Shown: positions 14,295 to 44,458, counted from the stretch's first letter. The stretch: 64,000 nt of DNA from an uncultured Alphaproteobacteria bacterium (GCA_905234465.1 CAJOHU010000001.1:31708-95707); one strand, 5' to 3'. Notes: generated by a model not told the origin, from the sequence alone. Made by a program: numbers and translations.

Positions 14295-17200
14295 ATGTCC
14301 ATATTTCGCAGGTTTTTTGGCGTTTTAACAATCGCATTTTGTTGCGTGTTTGCCGTACATTCCGCATGGGCAAATTTTTACATCACCACAACAACCACAG
14401 GCTATTATCAACATGCTCCTACTGTATGCATAAAAGCCAAGGGTTCGTTTTTTGTTGATTGGGGTGACGGGGGAACTGATTCCTGTCATAATTCAATAGT
14501 AAAAAGTTGCTGTAAAACTCATACTTATTCAGATAATAGCATATCCCACACTGTAGAGATAAGTGGGCAACCAACAGAGTATGCTGACTATACCAATGCC
14601 ACTTTTGATGCTCAGCCAACAATAGCATTTTGCAATTGGGGCAATCCTTATCTTTTCCATTGTGCGGCGCCCTGGGTGGCGGGCATATCTGGGTCTATTG
14701 GTGAAATTTTTCCGACACTTGGTAATGGAAATAACCCAGGGCAACAACCATCGTTTAGCCATACATTTGGCAGTATGCCCAATTTAACCGGCACTATACC
14801 CGCTAATTTATTTAATGGGGTTCATGGAACGCCTGTGCGGTGGATGTTTAGCAATTTGTTTTTTGCCGATACGGGTTTGACCGGCAGTATACCGTCAAAT
14901 TTATTCAGTGGTATTACGGGTACGGCTGTCGGGGCATTTGCACATGCGTTTGGGAGAACCACCCATTTGAATTGCCATGTCCCGGCGGGTTTGTTTCATA
15001 ATATAGTGGGCAATGTTCCTCAGAGTATGTTTTATGAGACTTTTGCGGGTAGTCCGGAAAATGGACCGGATGATGGTTTTTGTACAGAAAGTGGCACATA
15101 TGGTTGGATAGCGCCCGATGCGTTTTCTATATCTCGCTTGTATGGCACGCCTTTTTCTAATTATCAAATGTATCGGATGTTTTATAAGTCTGGTCTGGCA
15201 CAAAGTTGTCCAAGTGGTTATACCCAATGGGTGACGGGGTTTGAAGACGATTGGGATGGTCGCAAGGCGTGTGTCCCGTCAAGTATGACACTTACGACCA
15301 ACTGCGGGGAAGGAACCGGTAACGGCACAAGTATGAATGTTTCATATAATGATAATGTAATTGTGGGATCCCCTTCGTCTTGGGGTTGTACTGCACCGGC
15401 GGGCGAAACATTCAGTCATTGGGCGGTGTCAAACAGTACAGACACATATAACGCAGGTCAGCAGTTTAATTGGCACTATGTACAAAACAAGGTGTTTACA
15501 GCCGTATGGGAAGGACATTATTATAATTTCGCGTTAAATCATAAAGACGGATCAAACAATGTGAATACGGTTTATGAAAAATACAATACCGGTTGGGCGA
15601 CCAGTGCAAATGCGTCTTCATGGAATTGGAATATGATTCTTCCACAAGATACTGTGCGCGATGGATACACTTTGCGTGGTTATTATGATTATGATTTTGG
15701 GGATGTAAGCAGCAATGATACTGTAAGTGAAACAGAAGCGTATTATCATATGAAAATTAAGTATGATAGTAGCAGCAGTGGGTGGAAACTGCCTGCGCCA
15801 ACTCAGGCGCCGGGTGCCACATGGTATGCGGCATGGGCGCGTAATTGTGCACCGGTTGCGCCCGCAACATGCAGTTTACAAATTGCTCCGCACACTGGTT
15901 CTGTGACGTACGTCACCACGTGTCCGGAAGGATATAATAAAGTCAATGGTACTTCATACAACCCGAGTTGTACGCCGGTGGGTGTGACAATTACTTTAAA
16001 TAATAATGATGCCACATCGGCGGGAACGACCAGTTTGACAACAGCGTACGGTGTCGGGGTTTATCTTGATGGTACTTTGATGACCACAAGTGGTCCTTCA
16101 ATTACCAAACCGCAAAAGCAATTTACCGTCACTTATTATGCCCAGGGCGGAACGATGACCGGTGGCAATTCAAGTATCACGCAAACCGCAACATCCACAT
16201 TTGATGGGTATTATTATGCCGAGAACAATAATGCACCTGTCCAGGTCATTGATGATGATGGATATATAACAACCAATGGTGATACGATTGGTAAAGAGTA
16301 TACCACCAATGCAACATGGACGGCGCAATGGTCGGGGGGGGCGGTCACTTTGCCGAATGCCCAACGTCCGGGGTGGACGCTGGTGGGGTGGAAAACATCG
16401 GGAAATTGTGGTGGGTCATTGGCAGGTACCCCGGGGCAGCACTATACCCCGGATGGAAATATAATGTTGTACGCATGTTGGACAAATGTGCCATATTATA
16501 TAATCACATTGGCCGATGGGTCTTATAATGATATTATACAAAACGGCATGATTACCGGGACAAATGGTGGCTGTACCAGGGCCGGGTTGCAATATGGTCA
16601 AGGTTGGCTGAATATATGCGATGCCCCATTGCGTGGTGCGCTGTCGCTAAGCCAGATTCCAAAACGACCAAACCATGTGTTTAATGGATACTGGGCGGAA
16701 TTGGCGGGTGGCGCGTCGGGCGTAGATAGCCAGGTCGTTACCAAAGACGGCGAATTTTGGGAAACAAGCGAGGTTTTAAATGGATTTGTGTCCGATTCAA
16801 CGATTACCGCATATTGGCAACCAAAATATCTTATAACGCTTAATCCCAATGGCGGCAGTGGTGGTGACACATCTATATATGAAGGATATGGGGTTGGTTG
16901 GTCAAAAACACAAAATGGTGATTATACTGATACTATAACAGTTACTAAACCACAAAGAACGGGCTATACATTTAGTGGATATTATGATGATCCGAATTTT
17001 GGTATAAAATACATTCCTCGCAGTGGTGTGGTATCATTAAGTCCTGCAACATTTTCAACACCAAAGACACTGTATGCACATTGGTCCCCGCGGAGATATA
17101 CCATCACATTAAATGATAATGGTGGCAGTGGCGGTCAGGTCGGTGACGCGTCGTCACACTGTACCACAGCCGACTTGGTGTACGGTACCCGTTGGGAAAA

Positions 17201-20200
17201 TGGATGCGATTCGGGCGGTGCTGTATATGACCGCGGTGCCAGTGGCAGTGGCGAGGGTGACAAAACAGAAACGGGCGAATCGGGTGAAGGCGGGTCTGGC
17301 GAAAAAGCCGCATCAAGTTCTTCAAATACCGGGTCCAGCAGTTTAAGTTTGTATCCTCCTCTGCCTACAAGAGATGGTTATATTTTCAATGGGTATTGGA
17401 ATACGTCCGCATCTTCTGGTGGAACCATGATTGTTACTCCACAGGGGGCTTTCCGCGAGGTAGATGCTGCCTTGACCTTTACATCCCAGGATGCGACTAT
17501 ATATGCGCGTTGGGAATCGGGAACACCAAGTAATACGATATATACGATAACATTAGACCCCAATAACAATGGGGCGGATGGAAATCGTCCACCAAAGATA
17601 TACCAAAAGGGAACTTCTTTCTGGGCGGATTCAAGCGCAACTGACTACCCGATTACTGGTTCTGTATTTGACCCGATTGCCGACGGTGGTGCGGGTATAA
17701 CTCGCCCAACCCCACCAAGCGGTAAAGCGTTCAGTGGATACTGGGATGACAGAATGACGGAACGGTTTACCGATGCAGATGGAAATATAGTGGCAACTGC
17801 TTATTTCACAGGCGCTGCAACGGTTAATGCCCACTGGGGGGATGCCGCCACGACAACGGTTACATTGGATGCGAATAATGGTACCCCATGTGCAACAAGA
17901 ACGGTGACCGCCACCCAGGGGCACGATATGCCGACATTGACGTGTGGTCCAACACCGCCCCCCGGGTATGACTTTACCGGGTATTATAAGACAGAATATG
18001 GGGGGTGGCAGTATTATGATGAACAACCGGCGTCGGTGCATGTTTGGGATCAAACAACATCAACCGCAACAATTTATGCAGGATATGAGCCGGCGGTTCG
18101 TGATGTGTCGTATCTGTGCAACAGCGGTGGGATTGGTTCGGCTAATATGGTGGATCAGGCGACGTATGGTTCCGAATATACTATCAAAGATTTTAGTACT
18201 GTTGGGTGCAACGCAATCATCGGTAAAAAGTTCATAGGGTGGACTATATCAGGATCCAATACTTTCGTGGAACCGGGCAAATCATACCAAAATTGGCCAT
18301 ACTATACCGATTTAACTCTGGTCGCCAAATATTTGGACATATACACTGTGACTTTGCGGCACCCCGATGCGACAAATAGCCCTATGCCGCGTGTCGCATA
18401 TGTTATACCATACACATCTGATTCAGCTGGGTATGAAGGTTGGTATTCAGAGTCAACCGCCGATACACCTCTTGTGGCCATGATTACGGCACCGCAACGT
18501 CCGCTGTATGATTTTACCGGGTATTTCTATTTGCCAGATGGTGATACACAATCCGACGAGATACAGATTGTGCGCGAAAACGGGTATTTTTTTGATAATC
18601 AAGAAACATTAGAGTTAATTACATCAGATGGAGTTGCAGACGCAGCTTGGAAGCCTGTATCGCCAGAATTGACTATCACGACTACATCGTTACCGGCAAA
18701 TACAACATTCAGATTCTATATCGGTGCCACGGGTGAATTTGTTATAACGTGGGGCGATGGACAGACACAAACCGTTTCTTCACCGGGTATCGTTTCGCAC
18801 ACCTATTCCAGTGCAGGTGCGCGTACCATCGATATTGTCGGAGATGCTACAAGTTATACAGATGCGTACACAACAGGAACTATATATAATACCGGCCGAG
18901 TGGCAGAATCTAGCCAGTGGTCAAACAATGCTGTGCGCCCGATCCAAATTAATTTCCCGGCGGCGATACGGTTTGGATGTGAAGCCGAGGATACATCGTG
19001 TGCCCTAACCCCACAATTAATTAGTGCTGTGCATGGATCTTTGGGTGATGTGTTTCCGACGCTTGGTACCGGAAACACGCAACAGCCGCGGTTTAGTCGG
19101 ACGTTCGCAGGCTGTACTAACTTGACCAATGTTCCTGAAGATTTGTTTGGAGGTGTGTATGGTGCGGCAATACCCGGAATGTTCTATGGTACATTTGAAG
19201 ATTCTGGGTTGGTATCTGTTGGACAGAATTTGTTCAGCGGTATAACATCGTTCGCACCGCACGCATTCCAAAGAACATTTATGGGATCTGATTTGTCTAC
19301 TGTGCCGGCGGGGTTGTTTAGTCATATTTCTGGCGCCCCAGCCGAGGCCATGTTTGCGTATACTTTTGCGAACACACCGTTGCGCAGCATACCAAGTGGT
19401 ATATTTAGTGGTGTCGTTGGTGCACCGGCGGTCGATATGTTCTGGGGAACATTTAGTGGGGTTCCTTTTGTATATGGAAATACTTTGCCGGCGTTGTTTA
19501 GTGGTATATCAGGTGCGCCCGCCAAAGGTATGTTTGATTCAACGTTTTATAATAGTTATAACCTAACTGGCACGATACCGGCTAATTTATTCGGCGGCAC
19601 CAATTTGTCGGGTGTGCCGGCAGAACGCATGTTCGCAAGTACATTCTATGGTTGTTATAATTTAAGTGGTTCTATCCCGGCAAATCTGTTCGGTGGCATG
19701 GGATTAACCGGTGCATCGGCGGTTGGAATGTTTGATACAACATTCTTTGCGTGTATCGGTCTAAGTGGTTATGTTCCAATGACACTGTTTGGTGGAATAT
19801 CTACATCTAATCCAGCAGCTGATATGATGAATCATGTGTTTCAGCATTCTGGGTTATTGCCAGTTTGTCCATGCGGAACACATGATTATACCACCGGTTT
19901 TGAATCTTATTGGGATGGCAAGGTTTCTTGCGAAGTCGGGTTAAAACCAAACGAACATTGGTACGGCGATATATGTGTAGAAGATTGTGCGGCGGGTATA
20001 ACGCAAATAAGAACAAGTACAGGGCTGTCTTTCCAAATATTAAAGACAAAACCAACAGAACATGCAATTCATATTAGTGCCCCTAGTGATGGTACGGTTT
20101 GCTATGTGCCATTGGAATCTGGGCTTGGAGGCACGGACAGTATGAATGTTGCATATAGTGGTACAACATATCATCTTGGAATTGTTTCTGATACTGCGCC

Positions 20201-20231
20201 TGCTAACTGGGATCCGTTGGCGTCATCATAA
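14295..20231 (+). CDS. giant secreted repeat protein (1979 aa). It has a signal peptide and N- and C-terminal blocks of about 30-aa LRR-like (BspA/DUF285-type) tandem repeats. Between them are at least 8 Listeria-Bacteroides-type repeat domains. There is also a Gly/Ser/Glu-rich acidic linker.
   Basis: The ORF-track frame begins at 14184, but the probable start is the ATG at 14295 (MSIFRRFFGVLTIAFCCVFAVHSAWA, with a GGAAGGAAG RBS). The LRR-like repeat consensus is MFxxTFxGCxNLTGSIPANLFGGxxGxPA, with about 4 copies N-terminal and about 9 C-terminal. The Listeria-Bacteroides repeats read YxITLNPNGGSGG...RTGYTFSGYYDD...TLYAHW. The duplicated module is FYITTTTTGYY..FFVDWGDGGTD / FRFYIGATGEFVITWGDGQTQ. 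Confidence 0.85.
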   Translation: MSIFRRFFGVLTIAFCCVFAVHSAWANFYITTTTTGYYQHAPTVCIKAKGSFFVDWGDGGTDSCHNSIVKSCCKTHTYSDNSISHTVEISGQPTEYADYTNATFDAQPTIAFCNWGNPYLFHCAAPWVAGISGSIGEIFPTLGNGNNPGQQPSFSHTFGSMPNLTGTIPANLFNGVHGTPVRWMFSNLFFADTGLTGSIPSNLFSGITGTAVGAFAHAFGRTTHLNCHVPAGLFHNIVGNVPQSMFYETFAGSPENGPDDGFCTESGTYGWIAPDAFSISRLYGTPFSNYQMYRMFYKSGLAQSCPSGYTQWVTGFEDDWDGRKACVPSSMTLTTNCGEGTGNGTSMNVSYNDNVIVGSPSSWGCTAPAGETFSHWAVSNSTDTYNAGQQFNWHYVQNKVFTAVWEGHYYNFALNHKDGSNNVNTVYEKYNTGWATSANASSWNWNMILPQDTVRDGYTLRGYYDYDFGDVSSNDTVSETEAYYHMKIKYDSSSSGWKLPAPTQAPGATWYAAWARNCAPVAPATCSLQIAPHTGSVTYVTTCPEGYNKVNGTSYNPSCTPVGVTITLNNNDATSAGTTSLTTAYGVGVYLDGTLMTTSGPSITKPQKQFTVTYYAQGGTMTGGNSSITQTATSTFDGYYYAENNNAPVQVIDDDGYITTNGDTIGKEYTTNATWTAQWSGGAVTLPNAQRPGWTLVGWKTSGNCGGSLAGTPGQHYTPDGNIMLYACWTNVPYYIITLADGSYNDIIQNGMITGTNGGCTRAGLQYGQGWLNICDAPLRGALSLSQIPKRPNHVFNGYWAELAGGASGVDSQVVTKDGEFWETSEVLNGFVSDSTITAYWQPKYLITLNPNGGSGGDTSIYEGYGVGWSKTQNGDYTDTITVTKPQRTGYTFSGYYDDPNFGIKYIPRSGVVSLSPATFSTPKTLYAHWSPRRYTITLNDNGGSGGQVGDASSHCTTADLVYGTRWENGCDSGGAVYDRGASGSGEGDKTETGESGEGGSGEKAASSSSNTGSSSLSLYPPLPTRDGYIFNGYWNTSASSGGTMIVTPQGAFREVDAALTFTSQDATIYARWESGTPSNTIYTITLDPNNNGADGNRPPKIYQKGTSFWADSSATDYPITGSVFDPIADGGAGITRPTPPSGKAFSGYWDDRMTERFTDADGNIVATAYFTGAATVNAHWGDAATTTVTLDANNGTPCATRTVTATQGHDMPTLTCGPTPPPGYDFTGYYKTEYGGWQYYDEQPASVHVWDQTTSTATIYAGYEPAVRDVSYLCNSGGIGSANMVDQATYGSEYTIKDFSTVGCNAIIGKKFIGWTISGSNTFVEPGKSYQNWPYYTDLTLVAKYLDIYTVTLRHPDATNSPMPRVAYVIPYTSDSAGYEGWYSESTADTPLVAMITAPQRPLYDFTGYFYLPDGDTQSDEIQIVRENGYFFDNQETLELITSDGVADAAWKPVSPELTITTTSLPANTTFRFYIGATGEFVITWGDGQTQTVSSPGIVSHTYSSAGARTIDIVGDATSYTDAYTTGTIYNTGRVAESSQWSNNAVRPIQINFPAAIRFGCEAEDTSCALTPQLISAVHGSLGDVFPTLGTGNTQQPRFSRTFAGCTNLTNVPEDLFGGVYGAAIPGMFYGTFEDSGLVSVGQNLFSGITSFAPHAFQRTFMGSDLSTVPAGLFSHISGAPAEAMFAYTFANTPLRSIPSGIFSGVVGAPAVDMFWGTFSGVPFVYGNTLPALFSGISGAPAKGMFDSTFYNSYNLTGTIPANLFGGTNLSGVPAERMFASTFYGCYNLSGSIPANLFGGMGLTGASAVGMFDTTFFACIGLSGYVPMTLFGGISTSNPAADMMNHVFQHSGLLPVCPCGTHDYTTGFESYWDGKVSCEVGLKPNEHWYGDICVEDCAAGITQIRTSTGLSFQILKTKPTEHAIHISAPSDGTVCYVPLESGLGGTDSMNVAYSGTTYHLGIVSDTAPANWDPLASS

Positions 20232-27100: not shown

Positions 27101-27605
27101 CAGCGCAAAATTGGCGGAAATGCCGGACCGGGCAAATATTCGTATTGCGGCAAATGTAAATTCTTATTCACATCGTCGCACAAAAACTGGCAAAGAAATG
27201 ATAACAATAAATGCATCTGATGGTTTTGGTAATATTGATGCGGTGGCGTTCGGTGATGCGGTTGCAAATCTGATGGGGGTTTTGGCGTCTGAAACCGAGG
27301 TTGTTATGTCTGGGCGTCTGTCTAATCGTGACGATAGGGTTTCTGTATTTGTAGATTCCATAATACCCTTGGCACAGTGGGTTGCCGGAATCGCAAAAAA
27401 AATAACATTGGATATACGCAATCAATCTGTGTTGCAGGATGTTAAAAAGGCGTTAAGCACTTTGCCGACGGGTGGGACGCGTGTTGCATTGAATCTGTAT
27501 TCTGGGGGTAAAAAGACGACAATGGAATTAAAAGGCGGTGTGGAACTGGGGAAAAACACTATCGCAGATTTCACAGGATTGGGGATAAAGGTGGCAATAG
27601 AATGA
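24192..27605 (+). CDS. dnaE: DNA polymerase III alpha subunit
   Basis: 1137 aa. PHP domain (HLHMHS). Polymerase core motifs (GFPGYFLIVADYI, PDFDVDF). OB-fold tail. Full-length DnaE architecture. Confidence 0.95.
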   Translation: MSMENQFIHLHMHSRLSIGIGTIEVKKIPKLCAENGMFACALTDTNMMSGCAEFSDVMPSAGIQPIIGVEITLNHHTADPKMLRASSLSRVVLLAQSHDGYLNLCELSRIMYMRDENHHLGPYITFDELASHSDGVICLSGAHMGPIGMAVLNNQDGLARTYAEHLVQIFGNRFYIEIQRHGLEDEIKTEPVFLDIAKSLNIPIVATNDVCFAGASDYEAADALGCVLNQTKVIDPDRPRKSSEQYFKTSAQMIDMFSDLPEAIENTVNIAKRCAFFVNVHEKPLLPRFGNDFETECQMLRDNTMNGLTERLRQNDIKDTAPYFEQANYELDVIIGMGFPGYFLIVADYIEWCRKHDILTGPGRGSGAGSIVAWALGITHVNPLKYGLLFERFLNPDRISMPDFDVDFEPSGIEQVLAYICDKYGHDSVCRIITFGSLQARGAIRDVGRVYGIPYSKSDRLSKMIPPDAKKLKDAIDTSQEIQNVLNTDADMAKVVSIAEELEGSFRNLGQHACGVVIGDRPTTKIAPVYRDPANPLPSCQFDGHYLESAGLIKFDFLGLETLVVLKYATKLIQKTRRINVNLDEIPTDDDKTLALWQSGMTEGIFQFDAPFVQQTLRKMRPTSFLEISALNALNRPGPIAFIPQFIARMHGEEKIEYVHPRAEPILKETYGIIVYQEQVMQLTRALAGFTRGESDTVRKAMGKKKLDLLAKLEVKFLDGCKKEGTLDEAAAKDLWEKFKEFAKYAFNKSHAIAYSIVANQCAYLKAHFTPEFLAASMSSNMGDTDQLALFVDDAKSNFGIQIVPPDINKSESLFTVDKGKIIYALAAIKGVGVAATDAIIAERAKGAFKNITDFAKRCAPIINKRVLEAFAKVGVLDSINPNRAEIFMNADMILSYAAKSKESANMLSLFANTVEDDVAEDRLAKNLVKTAPWTFGQKLENELSALGFYISAHPLDQYKHLILGAHLANSAKLAEMPDRANIRIAANVNSYSHRRTKTGKEMITINASDGFGNIDAVAFGDAVANLMGVLASETEVVMSGRLSNRDDRVSVFVDSIIPLAQWVAGIAKKITLDIRNQSVLQDVKKALSTLPTGGTRVALNLYSGGKKTTMELKGGVELGKNTIADFTGLGIKVAIE

Positions 27606-28453
27606 TGAAACATGTGCCTGTCTTATTAGATTGTGTAATGAATGCGTTGGGCGATATCCGTGGTGCGCATATCATTGATGCGACATTTGGTGCCGGTGGG
27701 TATACACGCGCTTTTTTGAATGCGGGGGCAAATGTTGTTGCATTTGATAGAGACCCGAATGTGCGAATGGATGCAGAAAGTATCGCAAATGAATTTAAAT
27801 CAAGATTTGAATTTATACCAAAACCTTTTTCTGAAATGGCGAATTTGGACGATAAGTTTGATGCAATTGTGTTTGATTTGGGAATTTCATCTATGCAGAT
27901 AGATAACCCAGAACGCGGTTTTTCTTTTCGGGCGGATGCGCCGCTTGATATGCGAATGTCGGATGATGGCGCAACGGTTTGTGATATGTTTGATACATTA
28001 TCTGTTGACGAGTTGGCGCAAATTCTGCGGGAATATGGTGATGTGGGACCGGCGGTTGCAATCGCGAACGCAATTAAACAGAACATGCCAAAAACAACAT
28101 TTGAATTGCGCGATTTAATACATAGACCACGTGATATTGCGCCAACATTTCAGGCATTGCGTATTGCGGTAAACGATGAAATGGGTGAATTGCGGCGCGC
28201 CTTGGATGCGGTACCGAACTTGCTGAACGTGGGGGGGCGTTGTATATGTGTCACATTTCATTCGGTTGAAGACAGAATTGTTAAGAACGTGTTCAAAGAT
28301 TGGACAAGTGTTCGGGGTGACCCACGTTTGCCGGTGACTGGCAGACCACCGCAATTTGAAATGTTAAAAGTACAAACCCCAACAAGCCAGGAAACAAATG
28401 CAAATCCGCGGGCGCGCAGTGCACATATGCGCGGTGTTGTAAAATCATATTGA
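27602..28453 (+). CDS. rsmH: 16S rRNA (cytosine1402-N4)-methyltransferase
   Basis: VPVLLDCV...IDATFGAGGYTRAFL...FDRDP is the SAM-MTase signature of RsmH/MraW. The start overlaps the dnaE stop (ATGA). Confidence 0.85.
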   Translation: MMKHVPVLLDCVMNALGDIRGAHIIDATFGAGGYTRAFLNAGANVVAFDRDPNVRMDAESIANEFKSRFEFIPKPFSEMANLDDKFDAIVFDLGISSMQIDNPERGFSFRADAPLDMRMSDDGATVCDMFDTLSVDELAQILREYGDVGPAVAIANAIKQNMPKTTFELRDLIHRPRDIAPTFQALRIAVNDEMGELRRALDAVPNLLNVGGRCICVTFHSVEDRIVKNVFKDWTSVRGDPRLPVTGRPPQFEMLKVQTPTSQETNANPRARSAHMRGVVKSY

Positions 28454-28505: not shown

Positions 28506-29000
28506 ATGAAAAAGTTTATTATGGCAATTATTTGTGCGTTTGTTGCGTCTCATGCGTTTGCGGTTTGTCCGGTGTGCACGGTGGCGGTTGGTGCAGGACT
28601 GGAAGGGGCGCGTTTGTTGGGCGTTGATGATGTAATAACCGGAATTTGGGCGGGTGGACTTACATTGTCGCTGTTTTTCTGGACGGCGGGATGGTTGCGT
28701 AAACATGGGGTAAAAAGTGTGTTTTGGCAATTGATTGTGCCGTTTGTGTTTTACTATGCATTGCTGGGTATGGTTTATTTGTTGCCTGATGTGTATTTCG
28801 GTGTCAACACTATATGGGGAATTGATAAGTTTTTATTGGGAATTATTGTCGGTTCGGTCTGTTTTTGGCTTGGGGCACGGTGGTATGTGTCCATTAAGCG
28901 CAGAAATGGCGGACATGCCCAATTTGCGTTTCAAAAAGTTGTTGTTCCAATTAGTTTTTTGTTAATCGCAACATTGGTATTCTGGTTGATTACTAAATAA
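28506..29000 (+). CDS. hypothetical integral membrane protein (signal peptide + CPVC motif + 4 TM)
   Basis: The ATG at 28506 has RBS aaggaagg. MKKFIMAIICAFVASHAFAVCPVC. Four hydrophobic helices. Confidence 0.55.
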   Translation: MKKFIMAIICAFVASHAFAVCPVCTVAVGAGLEGARLLGVDDVITGIWAGGLTLSLFFWTAGWLRKHGVKSVFWQLIVPFVFYYALLGMVYLLPDVYFGVNTIWGIDKFLLGIIVGSVCFWLGARWYVSIKRRNGGHAQFAFQKVVVPISFLLIATLVFWLITK

Positions 29001-29031
29001 ACATGGTTTTAGCACGCAAAGGAGAAAAGTT

Positions 29032-29607
29032 ATGAAAAAAATGTCGTTGGAAGAAATGGTGCAAAAGGTTGATGAATCTAAAAAGGTAAATCCGTTGGAT
29101 TTGTCGTCTGACCAAGATTTGTCTATTGCGCTGATGAATTTGGTGTCGTTGGAAGAACATTTCTTTTTCAGTGGCGCAAAAACGAAAAAACCTGGATTCT
29201 ATGATTTGATAAATGTTGTTCGCAATATGCGTAAAGAATTGATGGAACGAATTGTTGACAAGAATGCAGCCCAAGGTGCCGAAGTTTGGTGTATATCTAA
29301 GCATTTATTGGCGGCATCTATGCGCCTGTACGAGGTTGGAACCAAGGCATTAGGGGGCGGAAATAAAAAAGACGCGTATAAAATGTTTGAACGCGCATAT
29401 GAATTGTATTCTTTGTTTTGGGGATTGAATATGAAAATGATAGACCTAAGTGGTGTGCAACAGATGGAACCTGATTTTTACAAATGCGTGTTGGACAAAG
29501 GCGCAAAAAAAGAAAAAGATGTCAAAAAACAAATGGTTGAGTCTAAATCTGTTGTGCATAAATTGGGTGATTGGGTTAAAAATGCGGTAAATTGCTGCAT
29601 AGAATAA
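29032..29607 (+). CDS. hypothetical cytoplasmic protein (191 aa, Lys/Glu-rich)
   Basis: ORF with RBS aaaggagaaaag. No recognisable motif. Confidence 0.5.
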   Translation: MKKMSLEEMVQKVDESKKVNPLDLSSDQDLSIALMNLVSLEEHFFFSGAKTKKPGFYDLINVVRNMRKELMERIVDKNAAQGAEVWCISKHLLAASMRLYEVGTKALGGGNKKDAYKMFERAYELYSLFWGLNMKMIDLSGVQQMEPDFYKCVLDKGAKKEKDVKKQMVESKSVVHKLGDWVKNAVNCCIE

Positions 29608-29677
29608 GTGTTGTTTAATTTTATGGTTGATTCAAGTTGTGTGTTTCTACTATAATAAACAACAGAAGGGAGTAGAA

Positions 29678-32059
29678 TTGGTCAAAGGAAGGGTGTTTTT
29701 TGCCATTGCTTTTGCGTTTATTGTTGCGCCGTTGATTGGTGGCGGGGCGTTTTGTGCGACCCAACCGAATCCCCGCACAACCGATTCGAATGCTGTGCCT
29801 CGTCGGTCTGTTGGTGCGGTACAATCACGCAGTGTCACAACATTACCAACGCGAATTCGTGCCGTTACGCAACCTGGGGCGGGTCGCAGCGCAAAAACCA
29901 TAACAGCGGTGCGTACAGCAACCGTGACAGGTCCGCGTTCAGGAAGTACGCGCAGTGCAGTACCGTCTATGCGTGCGCGCAGTGCCAAGACGGGCGCAAC
30001 AAATGCCCGAACGGGTAAAAACATACTGGCGGGATTGTCGGGTGGCGCACGCAGCGCAATGGCGCGCGCAACCGCGGTGTTCAGTGATGTATCAAAAATT
30101 GGTTCGGGATATGCGGCGTGTCGGGAATCATATGCGACTTGTATGGATCAGATTTGTGCAAGTGCTAACGATTCATATCGCAGATGTGTTTGCAGTGACC
30201 GTTATACAAAATTCCGCAACATAGAAGATGCCTTAGATCAGGCGATGATTATGTTGGCGCAATTTCAGGATAATAATTTGAATGCTGTTGATAAAACCGC
30301 CGCCGAAGTTGATGCGATGTATTCCGCCACGGTTGGTGAAATGGCGATTAAAAGTGATACCAGTGCTGCCGCCAAAATGCTGGACGAAATCAGTAATTTG
30401 TTGTCCGGAAAATCAACATCATCGCCCTATTCTGGTTCTGCCAATTCTTTGGGAATTTTGGATTTAGATTTCTCTACCGATTTGGGCGACATATGGTCAA
30501 ATGATGTATCGTCTATATTTTCGTCTTCGGGGCAGGATATGTCTACACTGGAAGGTGTGGCGTTGTTTAATGCGGCACAGAATCAATGTGTGAAACTTAG
30601 CCAGGACGCATGTGAAAATGATGCGGCGTTTTCAATGTCACGCAGTTCTTATAATATTCTGATTAATCAAGATTGCAATCTGTATGAAACGAAATTGAAT
30701 ACAAACAGGGAAAAAGTGGCAAAGGCGATTCGTTTGGCGGAACAATACCTGCGTGAGGCGCGTTTGGAAGAATACCGTTCACATAATTCTGCAGATGTGA
30801 ATGAATGTATTGCCAAGGTTCGTGATGCGATTCTAAAAGATACCGCGTGCGGCGAAAATTATAAACGTTGTTTGGATCCAACAGGTGCATATATCAATGG
30901 CGTGACCGGTGCGGCAATTTACAGTCCACGTCTGTTCCAATTAGAAAAAACGATTTCATTGGAAGGGGTCACAACATCTGGGAATGTGAATACTGATATT
31001 TTGGGACAAAACAAGACATATGATAAGTTTTTAGAAAATTATCGCCAATATGTGGTTCGGGAATTAGATACGTGTCGGGATATTGCAGATTTTGTGTGGA
31101 GCGAATTCAAACGCAATGCGATTATTGAAATTGCCCAAGCACAAAGCGAGAAATTAGAAGAAGTAAAATCTTCGTGCGTTAATACCATAGCAGAATGTTA
31201 TGACACCCAAACAAACGCATTAAAAAATGTTGATAAAAATACGGCAACCACCGCAGGGGCATTGGGGCGGTATACTGCGCGTGACATGTGTGCGGAACAG
31301 GTGTCAGCATGTGCTACATTATATGGCAGTACCAAGAATAATGAATCGTGCAAATTTGATTCGCGTGGTCATTTGACATCTGATACCGATAAAGATTCGT
31401 GCGGATTAACATCGTTGTTGAACTATGTCAAGGCGGTTGATGATTTAAGTGTCGCACAAAAGTGTGAAGAGGCGATTGAAGAATATGTGACAAACCTGTG
31501 CACACCTGACAATTCTACGTATTCTTATCCATATAATTGCCGCAAATTAAGCAGGGATAATATACGTGATTCAATACAAAAGTTTGCAATAGATAATTGT
31601 TATGATCCCGGGACGGATACGGTTGCCGAGTACAGTGATTTGCCGGATAGGGTTCAAACGCGCATTACACTTTTATTAAATGATATTGATGAATCCATGA
31701 ATGCGACGTTGGCGGATGAATGCAGCGAATCGGGTGGTATGTGGTCAGAAAAAAGAGATTCTGATAATCAGGATAATTATTGGTTAGGTTTCTATAATAC
31801 GGTTTATGGCGGATACACCCCAGATAATGCCGATAGTGACAAAAAGTATGGAACCGAATGGGGATATTGTTACGCGAACAGTCCGCGGTTGGCATGTTTG
31901 GCATATGCCGACATGTGGGATGAAGACGAAGATGTCGCGGAATGGGATATGGCGACCCAGACATGTGTTTTATACGATGCTTGGTACAGACATAAATGTC
32001 AAGAACTGGGGTCGGGATATTATTTGGATGGTGTGTGTTATATATCATCTGATAATTAA
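29678..32059 (+). CDS. large secreted hypothetical protein. It has a signal peptide, an Arg/Thr/Ser-rich low-complexity region (RSxxT repeats), then a Cys-rich region of about 600 aa.
   Basis: Probable TTG start at 29678 (RBS gaagggag). The ORF-track frame opens at 29627. Signal peptide VFFAIAFAFIVAPLIGGGAFCA. About 35 Cys. No catalytic motif recognised. Confidence 0.65.
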   Translation: MVKGRVFFAIAFAFIVAPLIGGGAFCATQPNPRTTDSNAVPRRSVGAVQSRSVTTLPTRIRAVTQPGAGRSAKTITAVRTATVTGPRSGSTRSAVPSMRARSAKTGATNARTGKNILAGLSGGARSAMARATAVFSDVSKIGSGYAACRESYATCMDQICASANDSYRRCVCSDRYTKFRNIEDALDQAMIMLAQFQDNNLNAVDKTAAEVDAMYSATVGEMAIKSDTSAAAKMLDEISNLLSGKSTSSPYSGSANSLGILDLDFSTDLGDIWSNDVSSIFSSSGQDMSTLEGVALFNAAQNQCVKLSQDACENDAAFSMSRSSYNILINQDCNLYETKLNTNREKVAKAIRLAEQYLREARLEEYRSHNSADVNECIAKVRDAILKDTACGENYKRCLDPTGAYINGVTGAAIYSPRLFQLEKTISLEGVTTSGNVNTDILGQNKTYDKFLENYRQYVVRELDTCRDIADFVWSEFKRNAIIEIAQAQSEKLEEVKSSCVNTIAECYDTQTNALKNVDKNTATTAGALGRYTARDMCAEQVSACATLYGSTKNNESCKFDSRGHLTSDTDKDSCGLTSLLNYVKAVDDLSVAQKCEEAIEEYVTNLCTPDNSTYSYPYNCRKLSRDNIRDSIQKFAIDNCYDPGTDTVAEYSDLPDRVQTRITLLLNDIDESMNATLADECSESGGMWSEKRDSDNQDNYWLGFYNTVYGGYTPDNADSDKKYGTEWGYCYANSPRLACLAYADMWDEDEDVAEWDMATQTCVLYDAWYRHKCQELGSGYYLDGVCYISSDN

Positions 32060-32091
32060 TTAAAAGAAAAACAAAAGGAAAGGAAAAAGTT

Positions 32092-32901
32092 ATGTTCAAA
32101 CAAATATTGGTATGTATAGTTGCTTTATCAGCAGGAATGACGGGGTCGTTTGGCGCGGCAAGTGTTCGTTCAATCGGAATACTTCCACATTCAGGTAGTG
32201 TTGGGGCGGTGACGCGCGCGGGAACTTTGCGGATGCAACCAACAACGGCTGTTGGTAAAAAATCTGTATCAACTGGTGCTACGCTTTCAGAAAACATATC
32301 TGGGGATAATACCACGCGTATGTCAAGTATTTCTGGAATCCCGGGTGTTGGGTCAAAACCGAAACTTTCTTCTTCTACATCGGCGGCTACACTTGCGGAT
32401 TTGAAAAAACAAGTTGCAGATTTGGCGAACGTGGTTTCTGATATGTTAAGTGCGGGCGTTGATGAAGAGGCGGTTCGTGAGATCATAGATTCTGAATTGG
32501 CGGCGAAAAATTTTGCAACCAATGAAGAACTTAACCAAAAAGCCGACAAAGAAGATGTAATATCCAGTGATGTCACGTTCACCGAAGAAAATGGGTATAT
32601 AGTTTTGACCAGTGGAAAGACCAAAGCGAATGTGGTCGCACTTTCAGACATTCAAGGGGGGCAAGGCACGCCGGGTGCGAATGCGTGTGAACCCAAATAT
32701 TCTTCTAAAACAAATGCTGATGGTGATACTGAGGTCACAATAACATGTGCTGACAATGAATCACAAGTTTTGGGGCAATATACTGTTGCCAAGGGCGCAG
32801 ATGGCGTGAATCCATGTCCGAAAGGCTTGGAATTGGTTGAGGACACAGAATACGAAGATTCGGTCAATTCAAAAAAATATGACTTGGTCTGCAATGAATA
32901 A
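32092..32901 (+). CDS. secreted paralog B (269 aa). It has a signal peptide and a middle module DLKKQVADLANVVSDML shared with paralog D. Its C-terminal module PCPKGLELVEDTEYEDSVNSKKYDLVCNE is shared with paralog C.
   Basis: Signal peptide MFKQILVCIVALSAGMTGSFGAA. Modules aligned by eye. Confidence 0.7.
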   Translation: MFKQILVCIVALSAGMTGSFGAASVRSIGILPHSGSVGAVTRAGTLRMQPTTAVGKKSVSTGATLSENISGDNTTRMSSISGIPGVGSKPKLSSSTSAATLADLKKQVADLANVVSDMLSAGVDEEAVREIIDSELAAKNFATNEELNQKADKEDVISSDVTFTEENGYIVLTSGKTKANVVALSDIQGGQGTPGANACEPKYSSKTNADGDTEVTITCADNESQVLGQYTVAKGADGVNPCPKGLELVEDTEYEDSVNSKKYDLVCNE

Positions 32902-32932
32902 AAAATAAACTTATAAAACATGGGGGAAAATA

Positions 32933-33979
32933 ATGAAAGAAAAAATGTTATATATGGGTATGTTCGCGGCGGTTGTGGCGTTGTTTGGTGCAAACGCATA
33001 TTCTAAAACACTGGGCAGTATAATTGTGCCCGCGCCAACAAATGGAAACGATGGTTTATCGGCATATCAAATATGGCTTAATAATGGAAACACGGGAACT
33101 GAGGCAGATTTTTTGGCTTCGTTAAAGGGTGAAGCTGGTACCAGTGTAAAGATAAAGGGTACCGTTTCAACCTGTGCCGCGTTAAACAGTCTTACTAATG
33201 TAAGTGCGGGGGATATTTATTTGGTTACGGGTGATAATAATATGGGTTATATTTATGACGGCACCTCGTTTCCAAATTGCCCGGGTAATGGTATTCAAAT
33301 TCAAGGACCGCAGGGACAGGCGTGTCTGACGACACTTACGACACAGGCGTGTGGTCCGGATCTTACTAAAAAATGTCCTGTGGCGACAAGGTCTGGCACA
33401 GTCTATACCAAAACAGATTGTAATGGCACGAATCCAACCGATGATGTCGTTTATAATGGTGATGATGGCGATGATATTTGTGATAATGTGGAAAATCCGG
33501 CGACATCGGTTAAAACATATACAAAGACATATACTGCACATACCGCCAGTTTGCCGGGATATGTGACGTTGACACAGACAATGTGCAACAACACTACAAA
33601 TACTACCAATTATCAAGATTCTTGTGTGCCGATTATTCCGCGCACAAATCAAAATATTTGCAGCGCCGGGACATATATGGAATGCACCGCCCAAAATGAT
33701 GGCACCGTGTATAATGTATGCAAACCCAAAGATACTGACGATGCCGACACAGTTTTCACGGCATTAAAAGATAAATTGTCAAAAAATGTGACATTTGCGA
33801 CAGAAACAGTGGACAATGTTGAATCTTTCGTATTAAAGGAAGGCAGTAATACGGTTGCGGTATTGGCGGCAAAGTCTGAATTAAAGGGTGAAACCCCTTG
33901 TCAGCAAGGGTTGAATTTAGTGGAAGATGATAATTATACAGGCAGTGGAAAGAAATATAATTTGGTATGTGATGATTAA
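32933..33979 (+). CDS. secreted paralog C (348 aa). Its N-terminal module (LGSIIVPAPTNGNDGLSAYQIWLNNGNTGTEADFLASLKGEAGT, plus a Cys-rich body) is shared with paralog D. Its C-terminal module is shared with B. It carries a short collagen-like GPQGQ.
   Basis: Signal peptide MKEKMLYMGMFAAVVALFGANAYS. The motif SAYQIWLxNGxxGTEADFLAxLKG. Confidence 0.7.
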   Translation: MKEKMLYMGMFAAVVALFGANAYSKTLGSIIVPAPTNGNDGLSAYQIWLNNGNTGTEADFLASLKGEAGTSVKIKGTVSTCAALNSLTNVSAGDIYLVTGDNNMGYIYDGTSFPNCPGNGIQIQGPQGQACLTTLTTQACGPDLTKKCPVATRSGTVYTKTDCNGTNPTDDVVYNGDDGDDICDNVENPATSVKTYTKTYTAHTASLPGYVTLTQTMCNNTTNTTNYQDSCVPIIPRTNQNICSAGTYMECTAQNDGTVYNVCKPKDTDDADTVFTALKDKLSKNVTFATETVDNVESFVLKEGSNTVAVLAAKSELKGETPCQQGLNLVEDDNYTGSGKKYNLVCDD

Positions 33980-33995
33980 AAAAAAGGTGGATGAA

Positions 33996-35003
33996 ATGAG
34001 TGGAAAAATCGTTTTTTTAGGGGCGTGTTCGGTGGCGGCTGTATGCACAGTTGTCGCGGGCGAATGTTTCGCCAGCAGAAATTTGGGCAGTATTATCATA
34101 CCCCCGGTGACAGACGGAACCGATGGTCAGGATGGTGCGTCGGCATATCAAATATGGCTTGCCAATGGGCACGAAGGAACCGAGGCGGACTTTTTGGCAT
34201 GGTTAAAAGGTGCTCCGGGCACACCGGCGTGTAATACAACTTTGACCAAAAGTGTGATAACCAATCCAGTGACCAGTAAAAAATCTGTGACTGTCACGGC
34301 AACAGATTGTAATAGTAACACATTGTGGACAGAAACGGTTGAAGACGGTGTAGATGGCAGCAATGGTGCGGCGGGTGTTGGGGTTTGTGATAATGTTGCA
34401 GATACAGCAACCGCCAACAAGAATACCGTTAGCATTTATACTGCGGGGACGGCAACCACCATTGGTTATATGACGCATACATATACCAAATGTAATGGAA
34501 ATACAGAAACAAGCATCGTGGAAGATTCTTGTGCCCAGGTCTTTGATAAACGCACCAGTGGCGCATGTAGTGGCGCATATATGGTTTGCAAAAATCAGCA
34601 GGCGGGTACGGAATACAATGTTTGCAAGCCGATAAGCGGGCAAGACATTAGTCCTTTTGGCAAAGCAATAAGCGATTTGGCAGACAGGGTCGCCGATAAA
34701 GCAGATACTTCTGTGTTGTCGGGTTATGTAAAGACAGATGGTACAAATTTACCAAACGGTATTATTACAACTAGCAATCTTGCCCAAAATAATATAGTGA
34801 CGACAAGCGCATTGAATTCTGCTGTAAATACTGCGGTCGGCGCCAAGGCTGTGTCGTTCGGTGGTCAAACGATGACAATGGACGATGTCGTTGAATTGTT
34901 AAGCAGCGCGGTTACATGTACAGAAAGCGATGTGGATTCTGTTAATACAATATCATGCAGTGGCAACGGTCTGAATTTATCACGATCAAAGGCTAGTAAT
35001 TAA
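33996..35003 (+). CDS. secreted paralog D (335 aa). Its N-terminal module is shared with C. It has a distinct C-terminus with the module ISDLADRVADKADTSVLSGYVKTDGTN.
   Basis: Probable ATG at 33996 (RBS aaaaggtgga). The ORF-track frame opens at 33927. Signal-like MSGKIVFLGACSVAAVCTVVAGECFA. Confidence 0.65.
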   Translation: MSGKIVFLGACSVAAVCTVVAGECFASRNLGSIIIPPVTDGTDGQDGASAYQIWLANGHEGTEADFLAWLKGAPGTPACNTTLTKSVITNPVTSKKSVTVTATDCNSNTLWTETVEDGVDGSNGAAGVGVCDNVADTATANKNTVSIYTAGTATTIGYMTHTYTKCNGNTETSIVEDSCAQVFDKRTSGACSGAYMVCKNQQAGTEYNVCKPISGQDISPFGKAISDLADRVADKADTSVLSGYVKTDGTNLPNGIITTSNLAQNNIVTTSALNSAVNTAVGAKAVSFGGQTMTMDDVVELLSSAVTCTESDVDSVNTISCSGNGLNLSRSKASN

Positions 35004-35015
35004 TTTATAAAAAAT

Positions 35016-35040
35016 GCCGCCCGGTTGGGCGGTTTTTTTT
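35016..35040. terminator. bidirectional terminator
   Basis: CCGCCCggttGGGCGG followed by T8. It lies between convergent genes. Confidence 0.6.
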
Positions 35041-35052
35041 ATGAAGTTTATA

Positions 35053-35472
35053 TTATTCTGCGGTTCCAACCATGCTTTTCAACATGTTCAAAAACGCGGC
35101 GCGTTGGGCATCTGTTTCTAATTTCCAATACAAACGGATTAACTGCAGACTCTCTGTACGCAACAATGGGTCGTCAGCGTCAGGCTGATGTACACGCATA
35201 GAACGAGTTGTTCGCGTTTCGTCCGGCATATTTCCCGGCAAACCACTAAAGAAAAAAGATACGGGTGTTTGCATTGCGGTACCGATTTCAAACAATCGGG
35301 ATGCGGATATACGGTTGTCCGCGGTTTCGTACTTCTGGATTTGTTGAAATGTGACACCGCATATGTTTGCCAAATCTTTTAACGATAGTCCCAACATCGT
35401 GCGACGCAGTTGCATGCGTTTGCCAATATGTTGATCTATGATAGTTGGTGTATAGGTTTTGCCTGCCATAAT
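35053..35472 (-). CDS. XRE-family (HTH_3) transcriptional regulator with a C-terminal extension
   Basis: The motif IGKRMQLRRTMLGLSLKDLANICGVTFQQIQKYETADNRISASRLFEIGTAM is a classic lambda-repressor-like HTH. The start MAGKTY was chosen. Confidence 0.7.
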   Translation of the reverse strand: MMAGKTYTPTIIDQHIGKRMQLRRTMLGLSLKDLANICGVTFQQIQKYETADNRISASRLFEIGTAMQTPVSFFFSGLPGNMPDETRTTRSMRVHQPDADDPLLRTESLQLIRLYWKLETDAQRAAFLNMLKSMVGTAE

Positions 35473-37098: not shown

Positions 37099-37130
37099 AA
37101 ATCCCGCGACATGCGGGATTTTTGCTTTTA
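37097..37130. terminator. bidirectional terminator hairpin
   Basis: aaaaatcccgc-gacat-gcgggattttt. Confidence 0.6.
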
Positions 37131-37640
37131 TCGCTGATTTTCAAAGAATTCTGTTATCATTTTTTCGGTTGTAAAATTACGCAATATTTTATACTTGTTG
37201 TTTGAATCATTTTCTGGCTGCACCAATACAATATCGCCACGTTTAGTATCAAAAAACTTTGTTTCCCATAATGGTAAAGATAGTCTTGATAAACTTATTG
37301 GTACAGCCCCGAATTTCTTGCCCATCAATTTCAATTTTCGTATTTCGTCTGATATATCGTATGCGCCGGTGACCAACATAACATCGCATTTGCGCAAAAC
37401 ATATTGAACGGGTCTGATTGTTCCTTTTTTTGTTAATGTGACCAATCCCCCACGATAAAATGCTTCTTCGCGTTTGAATTTATCTAGATATGAATAATGT
37501 ATAGAAACTTTTTTTGGTAATTTACCGCCATCAATATAGGTCGGAATAAGTGTAAAATCTATCATTCCATTATTGTGCATTTTTCTGTCTGCGATTACAT
37601 ATTCGTTAAATATACGGTTTTTATCGGATAGGTTTTCCAT
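37128..37640 (-). CDS. hypothetical protein (170 aa)
   Basis: ORF with no recognised motif. It is convergent with gpmI. Confidence 0.45.
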   Translation of the reverse strand: MENLSDKNRIFNEYVIADRKMHNNGMIDFTLIPTYIDGGKLPKKVSIHYSYLDKFKREEAFYRGGLVTLTKKGTIRPVQYVLRKCDVMLVTGAYDISDEIRKLKLMGKKFGAVPISLSRLSLPLWETKFFDTKRGDIVLVQPENDSNNKYKILRNFTTEKMITEFFENQR

Positions 37641-43862: not shown

Positions 43863-44324
43863 ATGACAGAAGAAGAAGTAAGTATTATTCTTGCCGGCAT
43901 ATTAAAACATTGGAAAACATTAAGTCCCGCTGAACTTAAAAGTCTGTTAAAGATTCTTATTGTTCGTGGTGATTTGCCGATATGTCCGGCGTGCAAGCAA
44001 CCCATATTAACCATTCAAGACAATTCTTTTGATCATGTTATTCCTGAATCTAAGGGTGGACCAACCGAAGCCGGGAATCTGCAACCTATGCATAAATGGT
44101 GCAATGTGGAAAAAGATGATGAAATATACGAACAATATTTTTGCCATGTTGATCCGGAACTGTTGGCACAGATGATTAAACAAGGCAAAGCCAAAGGTTC
44201 ACATGTGGCACGCAAATCTAAACAAAGATATGATAATGAACCCAAGGGACGTCGCAATCATGTTCGTATAAAGGGCGGTTGCGATATGACATCTTTTAAC
44301 AACAGCAATGGTCGTCACAGATAA
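43863..44324 (+). CDS. free-standing HNH endonuclease-domain protein
   Basis: CPACKQ...FDHVIPESKGGPTEAGNLQPMHKWCN has a C-x2-C, then H, N and H in HNH spacing. 153 aa. It lies 60 bp upstream of tRNA-Gly. Confidence 0.7.
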   Translation: MTEEEVSIILAGILKHWKTLSPAELKSLLKILIVRGDLPICPACKQPILTIQDNSFDHVIPESKGGPTEAGNLQPMHKWCNVEKDDEIYEQYFCHVDPELLAQMIKQGKAKGSHVARKSKQRYDNEPKGRRNHVRIKGGCDMTSFNNSNGRHR

Positions 44325-44384: not shown

Positions 44385-44458
44385 GCGGGCGTGGTATAAT
44401 GGCAGCACGAAAGCTTCCCAAGCTTTAGACGAGGGTTCGATTCCCTTCGCCCGCACCA
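44385..44458 (+). tRNA. tRNA-Gly (anticodon CCC)
   Basis: GCGGGCG...anticodon loop TTCCCAA...GAGGG-TTCGATT-CCCTT-CGCCCGC-A-CCA. Near-identical in acceptor, anticodon and T arms to the canonical bacterial tRNA-Gly(CCC). Confidence 0.85.

Follow-up and report, generated by a model that had tools for sequence, protein, structure and literature searches.

A widespread cysteine-based gene pair beside cysteine-rich exported proteins in Candidatus Enterousia: a possible thiol-disulfide relay of the cell envelope

Here we analysed a stretch of 64,000 nucleotides (hereafter the window) from an uncultured Alphaproteobacteria bacterium (GCA_905234465.1, CAJOHU010000001.1:31708-95707), and in it a block of six consecutive open reading frames (ORFs), all on the plus strand at 28506-35003, that we call g1 to g6. 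An earlier reading, made from the DNA sequence alone, had regarded this block as a horizontally acquired or lineage-specific surface or secretion locus lying between rsmH and a gene for an XRE-family regulator. The source of the window is Candidatus Enterousia, of the order Rs-D84 of the Alphaproteobacteria. The block and its immediate neighbours contain the following features, in which TM stands for transmembrane, AF2 for AlphaFold2 and pLDDT for the predicted local distance difference test.

27602..28453, plus strand: rsmH, 16S rRNA m4C1402 methyltransferase (Methyltransf_5, E = 5e-69; TIGR00006, E = 3e-63)
28506..29000, plus strand: g1, 164-aa membrane protein (hydropathy, HMMER search)
28566..28577, plus strand: CPVC motif of g1, residues 21-24, at the outer end of the first TM segment (TM1) and right after an AxA signal-peptidase-like site
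29032..29607, plus strand: g2, 191-aa cytoplasmic protein (no TM segment or signal in hydropathy)
29593..29604, plus strand: CCIE at the g2 C-terminus, residues 188-191, a vicinal Cys pair ending a flexible tail
29678..32059, plus strand: g3, 793-aa exported, mostly helical protein (hydropathy, alignment, AF2)
29726..30100, plus strand: predicted disordered N-terminal region of mature g3, residues 17-141 (pLDDT <50; Ser/Thr/Ala/Gly-rich)
32092..32901, plus strand: g4, 269-aa exported protein, first in the variable slot described below (hydropathy, paralogy)
32933..33979, plus strand: g5, 348-aa exported protein with 14 Cys (hydropathy, paralogy to g6)
33038..33271, plus strand: phage-tail-fibre-type module of g5, residues 36-113, ...DGLSAYQIWLNNGNTGTEADFLASLKGEAGT... 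(PHROGs, best E = 1e-13)
33996..35003, plus strand: g6, 335-aa exported protein with 13 Cys (hydropathy, paralogy to g5)
About 34107-34226, plus strand: the same tail-fibre-type module in g6 (77% DNA identity to the g5 module region)
35016..35033, no strand assigned: bidirectional intrinsic terminator (A-tract/GC-stem/T-tract), common to the block and the XRE gene
35053..35472, minus strand: XRE-family helix-turn-helix protein (HTH_3, PF01381, E = 2.8e-8)

The six ORFs were confirmed where the sequence-only reading had placed them, as was their close packing, with spacers of 13-70 nt and a purine-rich Shine-Dalgarno-like site ahead of every start. The likely starts of g3 (TTG at 29678) and g6 (ATG at 33996) were taken from the gene calls of an identical public contig and from the positions of the Shine-Dalgarno sites. 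Hydropathy analysis identified an N-terminal hydrophobic segment in g1, g3, g4, g5 and g6, with about four further TM segments in g1, while g2 is considered cytoplasmic because it has no hydrophobic segment; the five exported or membrane proteins counted in the text of the earlier reading were hence recovered, and the six of its title were not. The terminator expected at the end of the block was found as well, with GC stems of 7 bp and 6 bp and T-runs on either strand. The adjacent gene does encode an XRE-family protein (PF01381 match of 34.1 bits against a cut-off of 23) but it had been taken as divergent from the block, when it lies tail to tail with g6, sharing the terminator with it, and is divergent from gpmI. 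A terminator scan of the window found none between g2, g3 and g4, so that these genes would share one transcript with g1-g2. Searches of Pfam, NCBIfam and PADLOC gave no family for any of the six proteins, in agreement with their description as functionally undescribed genes, and the sole near-match was to lone7_assoc_B, associated with type VII secretion systems (T7SS), at 19.8 bits and below the cut-off of 35. This lack of assignment is not special to the block, because several further exported proteins of the window likewise have no Pfam match.

To place the block in its lineage, gene order was examined around g3 homologs at 58% and 51% identity, and a g2 profile was scanned against one genome per GTDB species, with phmmer and blastp run on all ORFs of 86 loci (labelled L001, L002 and so on). 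The order (secA-dnaE-)rsmH-g1-g2-g3-[slot]-XRE(minus strand)-gpmI-tadA-rsmD is found in about 45 Rs-D84 species, with identities of 63-88% for g2, 57-77% for rsmH, 56-77% for the XRE protein and 38-65% for g3. The gene rsmH lies directly upstream of g1 in every Rs-D84 locus with the canonical block, and the XRE gene is kept at the same position across Rs-D84, also when the slot is empty. In the window and in the related loci rsmH is not followed by ftsL, ftsI or mur genes; it is detached from the division and cell-wall cluster. The homologs derive from metagenomes of the rumen and the gut and carry no label beyond 'MAG: Alphaproteobacteria bacterium' (MAG, metagenome-assembled genome) or 'Candidatus Enterousia sp.'.

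Three layers of different age make up the block. The first is the pair g1-g2, an ancient and tightly linked two-gene module present in Rs-D84, in CPR/Patescibacteria (CPR, candidate phyla radiation) and in some other bacteria. The second is g3, which encodes a disulfide-rich exported protein and was added after g2 in Rs-D84. The third is the gap between g3 and the terminator, a variable slot that holds g4-g6 here and another Cys-rich exported protein or nothing elsewhere. The description of the block as lineage-specific consequently holds for g3, found in Rs-D84, and for g4-g6, found in the closest relatives, and fails for the widespread g1-g2.

Examination of the g2 scan loci placed a g1 homolog immediately upstream of g2 in 76 of 80, including those of Falkowbacteria, Uhrbacteria and Saccharibacteria. 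In one locus (L064) the pair has been swapped as a unit for a second type, with rsmH, g3 and XRE still of the local type. Outside the Alphaproteobacteria, the gene directly upstream of g1 in 13 of 18 loci encodes a membrane-anchored protein of about 115-140 aa with one N-terminal TM segment, an invariant CxxC (mostly CPHC), an invariant Pro at the cis-Pro position and an extra invariant Cys pair. The profile of this partner matched PDB glutaredoxin entries (E = 9e-7) and Pfam Glutaredoxin was hit by 13 of 17 members, so that by sequence comparison the partner of g1 outside Rs-D84 is assigned a thioredoxin/glutaredoxin fold. Besides adjacency there is fusion: among the top 150 g1 representatives about 15 are fusion proteins of 275-370 aa, and the five full-length ones examined run from a signal peptide through a glutaredoxin (Grx)-like CxxC domain, a TM segment, a Lys/Arg-rich linker, a second TM segment and AxCPxC to the body of g1. 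The pair g1-g2 is therefore widespread, undescribed and tightly linked, its only strongly conserved chemistry is Cys-based, and fusion and adjacency tie it to an exported thioredoxin-fold CxxC protein.

The g1 family comprises 426 representatives at 50% clustering in an exhaustive HMMER search. The window protein begins with a signal-like TM1 followed by four TM segments, and across 77-104 divergent family representatives the only conserved positions are those of CPxC (C21, P22, C24), W48 and a few Gly, C24 being invariant and C21 and P22 at least 90% conserved. No Pfam match was obtained for g1 at E<=1, nor for 77 family representatives, and a PDB search with the family profile gave none. A positive-inside count over the family showed the N-terminus and the loops 64-72 and 128-144 to be rich in Lys/Arg, which places them inside, and the CPxC segment to be net acidic, which places it outside; the order of domains in the fusions puts CPxC on the side of the Grx domain, and CPxC is hence taken to face outward, in agreement with the distribution of charges. 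The g1 gene comes in divergent types at odds with the species tree. Compared with the window, L007 is 88% identical in g2 and 62% in g3, yet just 33% in g1, and in L064 rsmH (70%), g3 (52%) and XRE (74%) are of the local type and g1 (35%) and g2 (54%) form a 'type-2' pair, which elsewhere sits away from rsmH (L062, L067, L070-72, L077, L079, L083, L086). The patterns in L007 and L064 suggest, as far as sequence comparison goes, a cassette-like replacement of g1 or of the g1-g2 pair.

The most conserved gene of the block is g2. Its homologs form 8000 or more database clusters, every one labelled 'hypothetical' and lacking a Pfam domain, and the profile scan confirmed at least 585 loci. Homologs at 53-59% identity occur in Candidatus Falkowbacteria, Uhrbacteria and Saccharibacteria and in MAGs labelled Gamma- or Deltaproteobacteria, and a second g2 type within Rs-D84 stands at the same 53-59%. 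The AF2 model, built from an alignment of 60 sequences (mean pLDDT 62), predicts a four-helix bundle as core (residues ~25-135, pLDDT 70-89) and a tail (134-191, pLDDT <50) that ends in a short helix and CC[I/L]E. In alignments of 22, 35 and 60 sequences, covering Alphaproteobacteria and CPR, C188, C189 and E191 are invariant; further invariant residues are E41-E42-H43, E84, C87 and H91 (in WCISKH) and E101. A PDB sequence search with the profile found no match. We dropped the possibility that g2 is a ferritin-like or rubrerythrin-like di-iron protein: rubrerythrin and sulerythrin were hit at E of about 0.5-3 with TM-scores of 0.24-0.31, and a di-iron site is unsupported because there is no ExxH motif. 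Reading CCIE as a CaaX-like signal for prenylation by a host was likewise given up, the motif being equally invariant in free-standing CPR homologs and the idea having no other support.

Two observations concern the ways in which g2 occurs. A metagenomic protein of 350 aa (P0443) carries the g2 domain in tandem, the first copy being degenerate, with neither WCISKH nor a CC tail, and the second canonical, and this sequence arrangement hints that g2 may work as a dimer. Homologs 66-67% identical to g2 are found with no detectable g1, rsmH or g3 nearby in L028 (3550-4158), L033 (5977-6618) and L036 (5977-6597), upstream of a tlyA-like gene and aspS; these may be stand-alone copies or extra paralogs.

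Among the loci examined g3 is limited to Rs-D84, and its homologs, at least 992, are all unnamed alphaproteobacterial MAG proteins of Rs-D84 type. In the alignment 28 Cys are invariant, which is an even number, and CxxC does not occur. The AF2 model (pLDDT 64) consists of long helices and a confident C-terminal alpha/beta domain (~580-793); Foldseek found nothing significant for it in PDB or BFVD, and the sequence profile had no match in PDB. The N-terminal region predicted to be disordered (residues 17-141) bears an invariant or near-invariant Arg every ~9-10 residues (R33, R42, R51, R61, R70, R101, R111, R125, R130), and residues ~22-95 of g4, following the signal peptide, have a similar composition. 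The Arg-bearing region of g3 and the similar stretch of g4 could bind an anionic polymer of the envelope.

The slot between g3 and XRE was compared in the 33 loci that have both genes. It is empty in 16 (19-95 nt, with the terminator alone), in 15 it holds one exported protein of an unrelated family (334-476 aa, 18-30 Cys), in L026 a more distant Cys-rich protein, and in the window g4-g6. The unrelated family (L013-L046, L064; for example L014 9142-10386) shows C-x-x-G-x-x-G-x-x-C spacings like those of epidermal growth factor (EGF) domains and is not homologous to g3-g6. Homologs of g4-g6 are confined to L001, of the same species, and the closest relatives L007-L009; those of g4 are found in L001 and L007-L010/L012 at 31-56% identity over partial length, the matches in L010 and L012 being weak. 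Within the slot, g5 is a paralog of g6 (32% identity over 312 aa, E = 7e-39) and the ~32 C-terminal residues of g4 resemble the C-terminus of g5. In L003 and L005 an A-tract/stem/T-tract terminator directly follows g3, the equivalent one follows g6 in the window, and none lies between g3 and g4; for this reason g4-g6 are best described as having been inserted after g3, ahead of the operon terminator. The genes g3 and g6 share the ending TAATTAATT, which makes an imperfect 18-nt direct repeat (window 32053-32070 and 34997-35014, 83% identity) flanking g4-g6; it could be the trace of an insertion or duplication event, or be due to chance. Taking g3 and the slot proteins together, their median Cys content is 3.6%, against 1.4% for the other genes of the same loci, a comparison that is descriptive only.

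On these grounds g1-g2 probably handles thiol chemistry at the cell envelope, and we propose tentatively, with a probability of roughly 0.4-0.45, that the pair forms a thiol-disulfide relay in the membrane, in the neighbourhood of surface proteins rich in disulfides. According to this proposal, the CPxC of g1 at the outer membrane face would exchange disulfides with exported thioredoxin-fold proteins or directly with substrates, the thioredoxin-fold partner being, in CPR, the fused or adjacent Grx-like CPHC protein. The cytoplasmic g2 would dock on the conserved basic loops of g1, and its vicinal Cys-Cys tail, possibly aided by C87/H91, would act as a swinging arm carrying reducing equivalents into or out of the cytoplasm. 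In MerA and in thioredoxin reductases of high relative molecular mass (high-Mr) a flexible C-terminal tail with a vicinal Cys pair serves as a shuttle arm, and it is this arm that the g2 tail resembles. In organisms that have no respiratory chain such a relay might stand in for the quinone-dependent step of DsbB/VKOR or for that of CcdA/DsbD. In Enterousia, g1-g2 would be co-transcribed with its likely clients, g3 with 28 invariant Cys and g5 and g6 with 13-14 Cys each. As far as the sequence goes, the relay could work as an oxidase or as a reductase, with electrons flowing in either direction.

As for g3-g6, they are most likely structural and adhesion proteins of the envelope or surface of a partner-dependent bacterium. 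Published work describes Enterousia (order Rs-D84) as having genomes of <1 Mb that encode neither a tricarboxylic acid (TCA) cycle nor respiratory chains (PMC12306168), and predicts it to be an obligate symbiont or parasite dependent on partner cells (PMC12306168); the literature that we found gives this lineage context and nothing on the genes of the block. The OmcA/OmcB proteins of Chlamydia, which form a disulfide cross-linked outer membrane complex, offer a possible analogy for g3 and the slot proteins, being likewise lineage-specific, exported and Cys-rich in a host-dependent bacterium of reduced genome, but there is no relationship in sequence or fold, g3 being predicted as mostly long helices.

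Comparison with the known systems indicates where the proposed relay would resemble them and where it would depart from them. Like the membrane proteins of the DsbA-DsbB and MdbA-VKOR pairs, g1 is small and polytopic with a CxxC-type motif at the outer face, it is either fused to an exported thioredoxin-fold CxxC protein or encoded next to one, the CPHC of which is the very motif of DsbA/MdbA, and g1-g2 sits beside disulfide-rich exported proteins. Natural VKOR-thioredoxin fusions are known from Actinobacteria, cyanobacteria and some CPR. Unlike DsbB and VKOR, to which it has no sequence or profile similarity, g1 has no recognisable quinone site and occurs in lineages devoid of respiratory chains; DsbB carries two essential periplasmic Cys pairs on a four-TM bundle and VKOR a CxxC in a TM helix plus a loop Cys pair, whereas g1 has the CPxC pair only, and neither system has a counterpart of the obligatory cytoplasmic partner g2. 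The need for such a Cys-bearing partner fits better the scheme of CcdA/DsbD (with ResA, CcmG or TlpA as partners), in which the same logic runs from a cytoplasmic thiol protein through a membrane protein to an exported thioredoxin-fold protein. In CcdA/DsbD, however, the two Cys stand on separate TM helices of an inverted repeat of 6-8 TM segments and the cytoplasmic donor is thioredoxin, while in g1 both are in one CPxC at the end of TM1 and g2 is a four-helix bundle with a CC tail; no homology was detected.

Several results weigh against the thiol relay. Neither g1 nor its 77 relatives matched the Pfam families DsbB (PF02600), VKOR (PF07884), CcdA/DsbD (PF02683) or MerT/MerC/MerF. No second conserved Cys pair was found across the representatives of the g1 family and no conserved cofactor ligand, His137 not being conserved family-wide, and with one conserved Cys pair and no such ligand an electron route across the membrane is not evident. 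Foldseek comparison of the g2 model with PDB returned insignificant generic four-helix bundles only (E >=0.48). The gene for the Grx-like partner is absent beside g1-g2 in the window block and in every Rs-D84 locus examined. In CPR loci the pair lies among housekeeping genes, after thrS, with no Cys-rich neighbours, and in the related MAGs L049, L051, L052 and L055 rsmH-g1-g2 occurs with no g3; because of these two arrangements the link between g1-g2 and g3-g6 could be positional only. Finally, a CxxC, a CC pair and a thioredoxin-like fold would fit the binding of soft metals as well.

A wider form of the proposal, which we hold to be rather doubtful, is that g1-g2, with the Grx-like outer partner where present, constitutes a previously unrecognised quinone-independent transmembrane relay, in which an outward CPxC would be serviced by the Cys-Cys tail of g2, and that in this way disulfide-rich surface proteins are folded or maintained in CPR/Patescibacteria and in other ultra-small bacteria that do not respire, Rs-D84 among them. 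Ultra-small, partner-dependent bacteria attach to other cells through surface proteins and presumably have no respiratory quinones to drive the DsbB/VKOR pathways, and the proposal, if true, would bear on how CPR-like organisms fold surface proteins with no quinones. More than 8000 g2 clusters, 53-59% identity across phyla, no annotation and an exported CxxC partner together make the pair a testable candidate for the management of envelope thiols, and Enterousia, with the module and its plausible clients in one operon, provides a natural experimental handle. Even if the redox interpretation were wrong, g2 would count among the better-conserved unknown proteins of minimal bacterial genomes.

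The explanation that best survives beside the thiol relay, and that we judge somewhat improbable, is coincidence of position: g1-g2 would have some other conserved function related to the envelope, g3-g6 would be unrelated surface or adhesion proteins gathered at the permissive 3' end of the operon before a strong terminator, and richness in Cys would be a style of the exported proteins of this lineage. The loci with rsmH-g1-g2 and no g3, the CPR pairs with no Cys-rich neighbours, and a slot that is empty in 16 loci and filled by unrelated families in others are all in line with it, as is the published view of Rs-D84 as a group with many hypothetical membrane proteins that serve cell-cell interaction. 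The Cys contents speak on both sides: they are 3.6-4.0% in g3, g5 and g6, ~4.5-7% in the alternative slot proteins and 2-2.7% in other exported proteins of the window. For the other exported proteins of the same loci the baseline (n = 6) was too small for a real test, which counts against the relay as well. That three different families in the same slot should all be exported and Cys-rich (3.6-7%) is not what coincidence would lead one to expect, nor is the transcript shared with g1-g2 that follows from the missing terminators between g2, g3 and g4. Moreover, coincidence of position leaves g1-g2 unexplained and is partly compatible with the relay.

Less probable in our view is a relay for soft metals (Cu(I), Zn, Hg or Cd) with the logic of MerP-MerT-MerA, in which the metal would pass from the outer CxxC protein to the CPxC of g1 and on to the CC tail of g2. 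The parallel with mercury transport lies in the chain of Cys pairs outside, in the membrane and inside, where g2 adds Cys and His to its C-terminal CC. The surroundings of the pair offer some hints in this direction, namely a heavy-metal P-type ATPase 2 kb away in L060, genes for Fur and AhpC a few kb away in two CPR loci, and one fusion of g1 to a cytoplasmic Nitro_FeMo-Co domain (NifX/NifB-like, cofactor-binding; E = 5e-15), but the ATPase is a neighbour in that one locus only. Against such a relay, Pfam gave no match to MerT, MerC, MerF, HMA or other metal families, and no homology to the mercury proteins was seen; g1 has neither the second, cytoplasmic Cys pair of MerT nor a conserved His or Met in its TM segments across the family; g2 has no flavin or NAD(P)H domain; and the outer partner has a glutaredoxin/thioredoxin fold, with cis-Pro and a DsbA-like CPHC, and not the ferredoxin-like fold of MerP.

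That the whole block was acquired horizontally as an accessory island coding for a surface or secretion system that the XRE protein controls, as the sequence-only reading had it, now appears very improbable. What favours it is that the six genes are unannotated and five of them exported or membrane proteins, that g4-g6 are confined to close relatives, and the imperfect 18-nt direct repeat (TAATTAATT...) around these three. The composition of the block is, however, native. An island would be expected to deviate from the flanks in GC and codon usage, and no deviation was found: GC is 0.38-0.46 in the block and 0.42-0.45 in the flanks, the codon-usage distances of the block genes (0.08-0.21) span the range of housekeeping genes of similar length, and GC, GC at third codon positions (GC3) and codon distance of g1-g6 all stay within the values seen in the housekeeping genes on either side. 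The borders of the block carry no integrase, transposase, other mobility gene or tRNA, and the 18-nt repeat, which may be due to chance, is the sole candidate for a border feature. The survey of related genomes divided the block, g1-g3 being present and syntenic in about 45 species and g4-g6 only in the closest relatives; of the conserved synteny with housekeeping homologs that the sequence-only reading had set against itself, the synteny was thus encountered for g1-g3, and that of g1-g3 and XRE across the order contradicts an island for g1-g3. Horizontal acquisition of the block is accordingly not borne out by composition, borders or synteny: it is mostly a vertically inherited core, and its accessory part is g4-g6 only.

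Nor did the function assumed for an island find support. No signature component of the known secretion systems (T1SS-T9SS, Tad and others) was detected among the six proteins with Pfam, NCBIfam and PADLOC, and a secretion locus, or a defence system, was dropped on account of these scans. The same applies to the XRE protein as regulator of the block, since its gene is convergent and keeps its position next to g3 whatever the slot holds, with g4-g6, without them or empty.

Equally improbable is that g4-g6 are the remnant of a prophage with leftover tail-fibre genes. The N-terminal module of g5 and g6, ~80 residues directly after the signal peptide, does match tail-fibre families of PHROGs (E = 1e-13) and, by tblastn with g5, 233 phage records annotated as tail fibre or tail spike, and its ...SAYQIWLxxGxxGTExxFLxxLKG... 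is recurrent in the tail-fibre and collagen-like modules of phages (PHROGs 15437, 13286, 3904); but these matches cover 22% of g5, the remainder of g5 and g6 consists of unique Cys-rich bodies, and g4, g5 and g6 all have Sec-type N-terminal signals, which are absent from phage fibres. A prophage origin was rejected in view of the lack of any other phage gene near g4-g6 and of any relative of g5 in 2.9 million viral contigs. A PDB search with the g5 sequence gave no match, and the PHROGs scan of all six proteins yielded this tail-fibre module of g5 and g6 only.

Outside the block, the better candidate for recent acquisition is an ORF of 170 aa at 37128-37640 (minus strand), whose GC (0.333) and GC3 (0.298) are the lowest and whose codon distance (0.214) is the highest of the genes compared, and which has no Pfam match and is absent from the gpmI-tadA interval in L005 and L006; none of the block genes is as good a candidate. 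Further upstream in the window, 14184-20231 (plus strand) encodes a protein of 2015 aa that has a hydrophobic segment at its N-terminus and contains 40 Cys and a Listeria-Bacteroides repeat (Flg_new, E = 3e-6); its counterparts upstream of secA in relatives have 1964-1978 aa and no Pfam match. The RNA of RNase P, class A, was identified at 13817-14162 (minus strand, 188 bits), and a gene for an HNH endonuclease at 43863-44324 (plus strand) lies directly upstream of a tRNA gene (44385-44455, plus strand). A small exported His-rich protein (GHGGHNHMPSGHVVTHVHN) is encoded at 1238-1510 (plus strand) and, judging from its composition, could bind metal.

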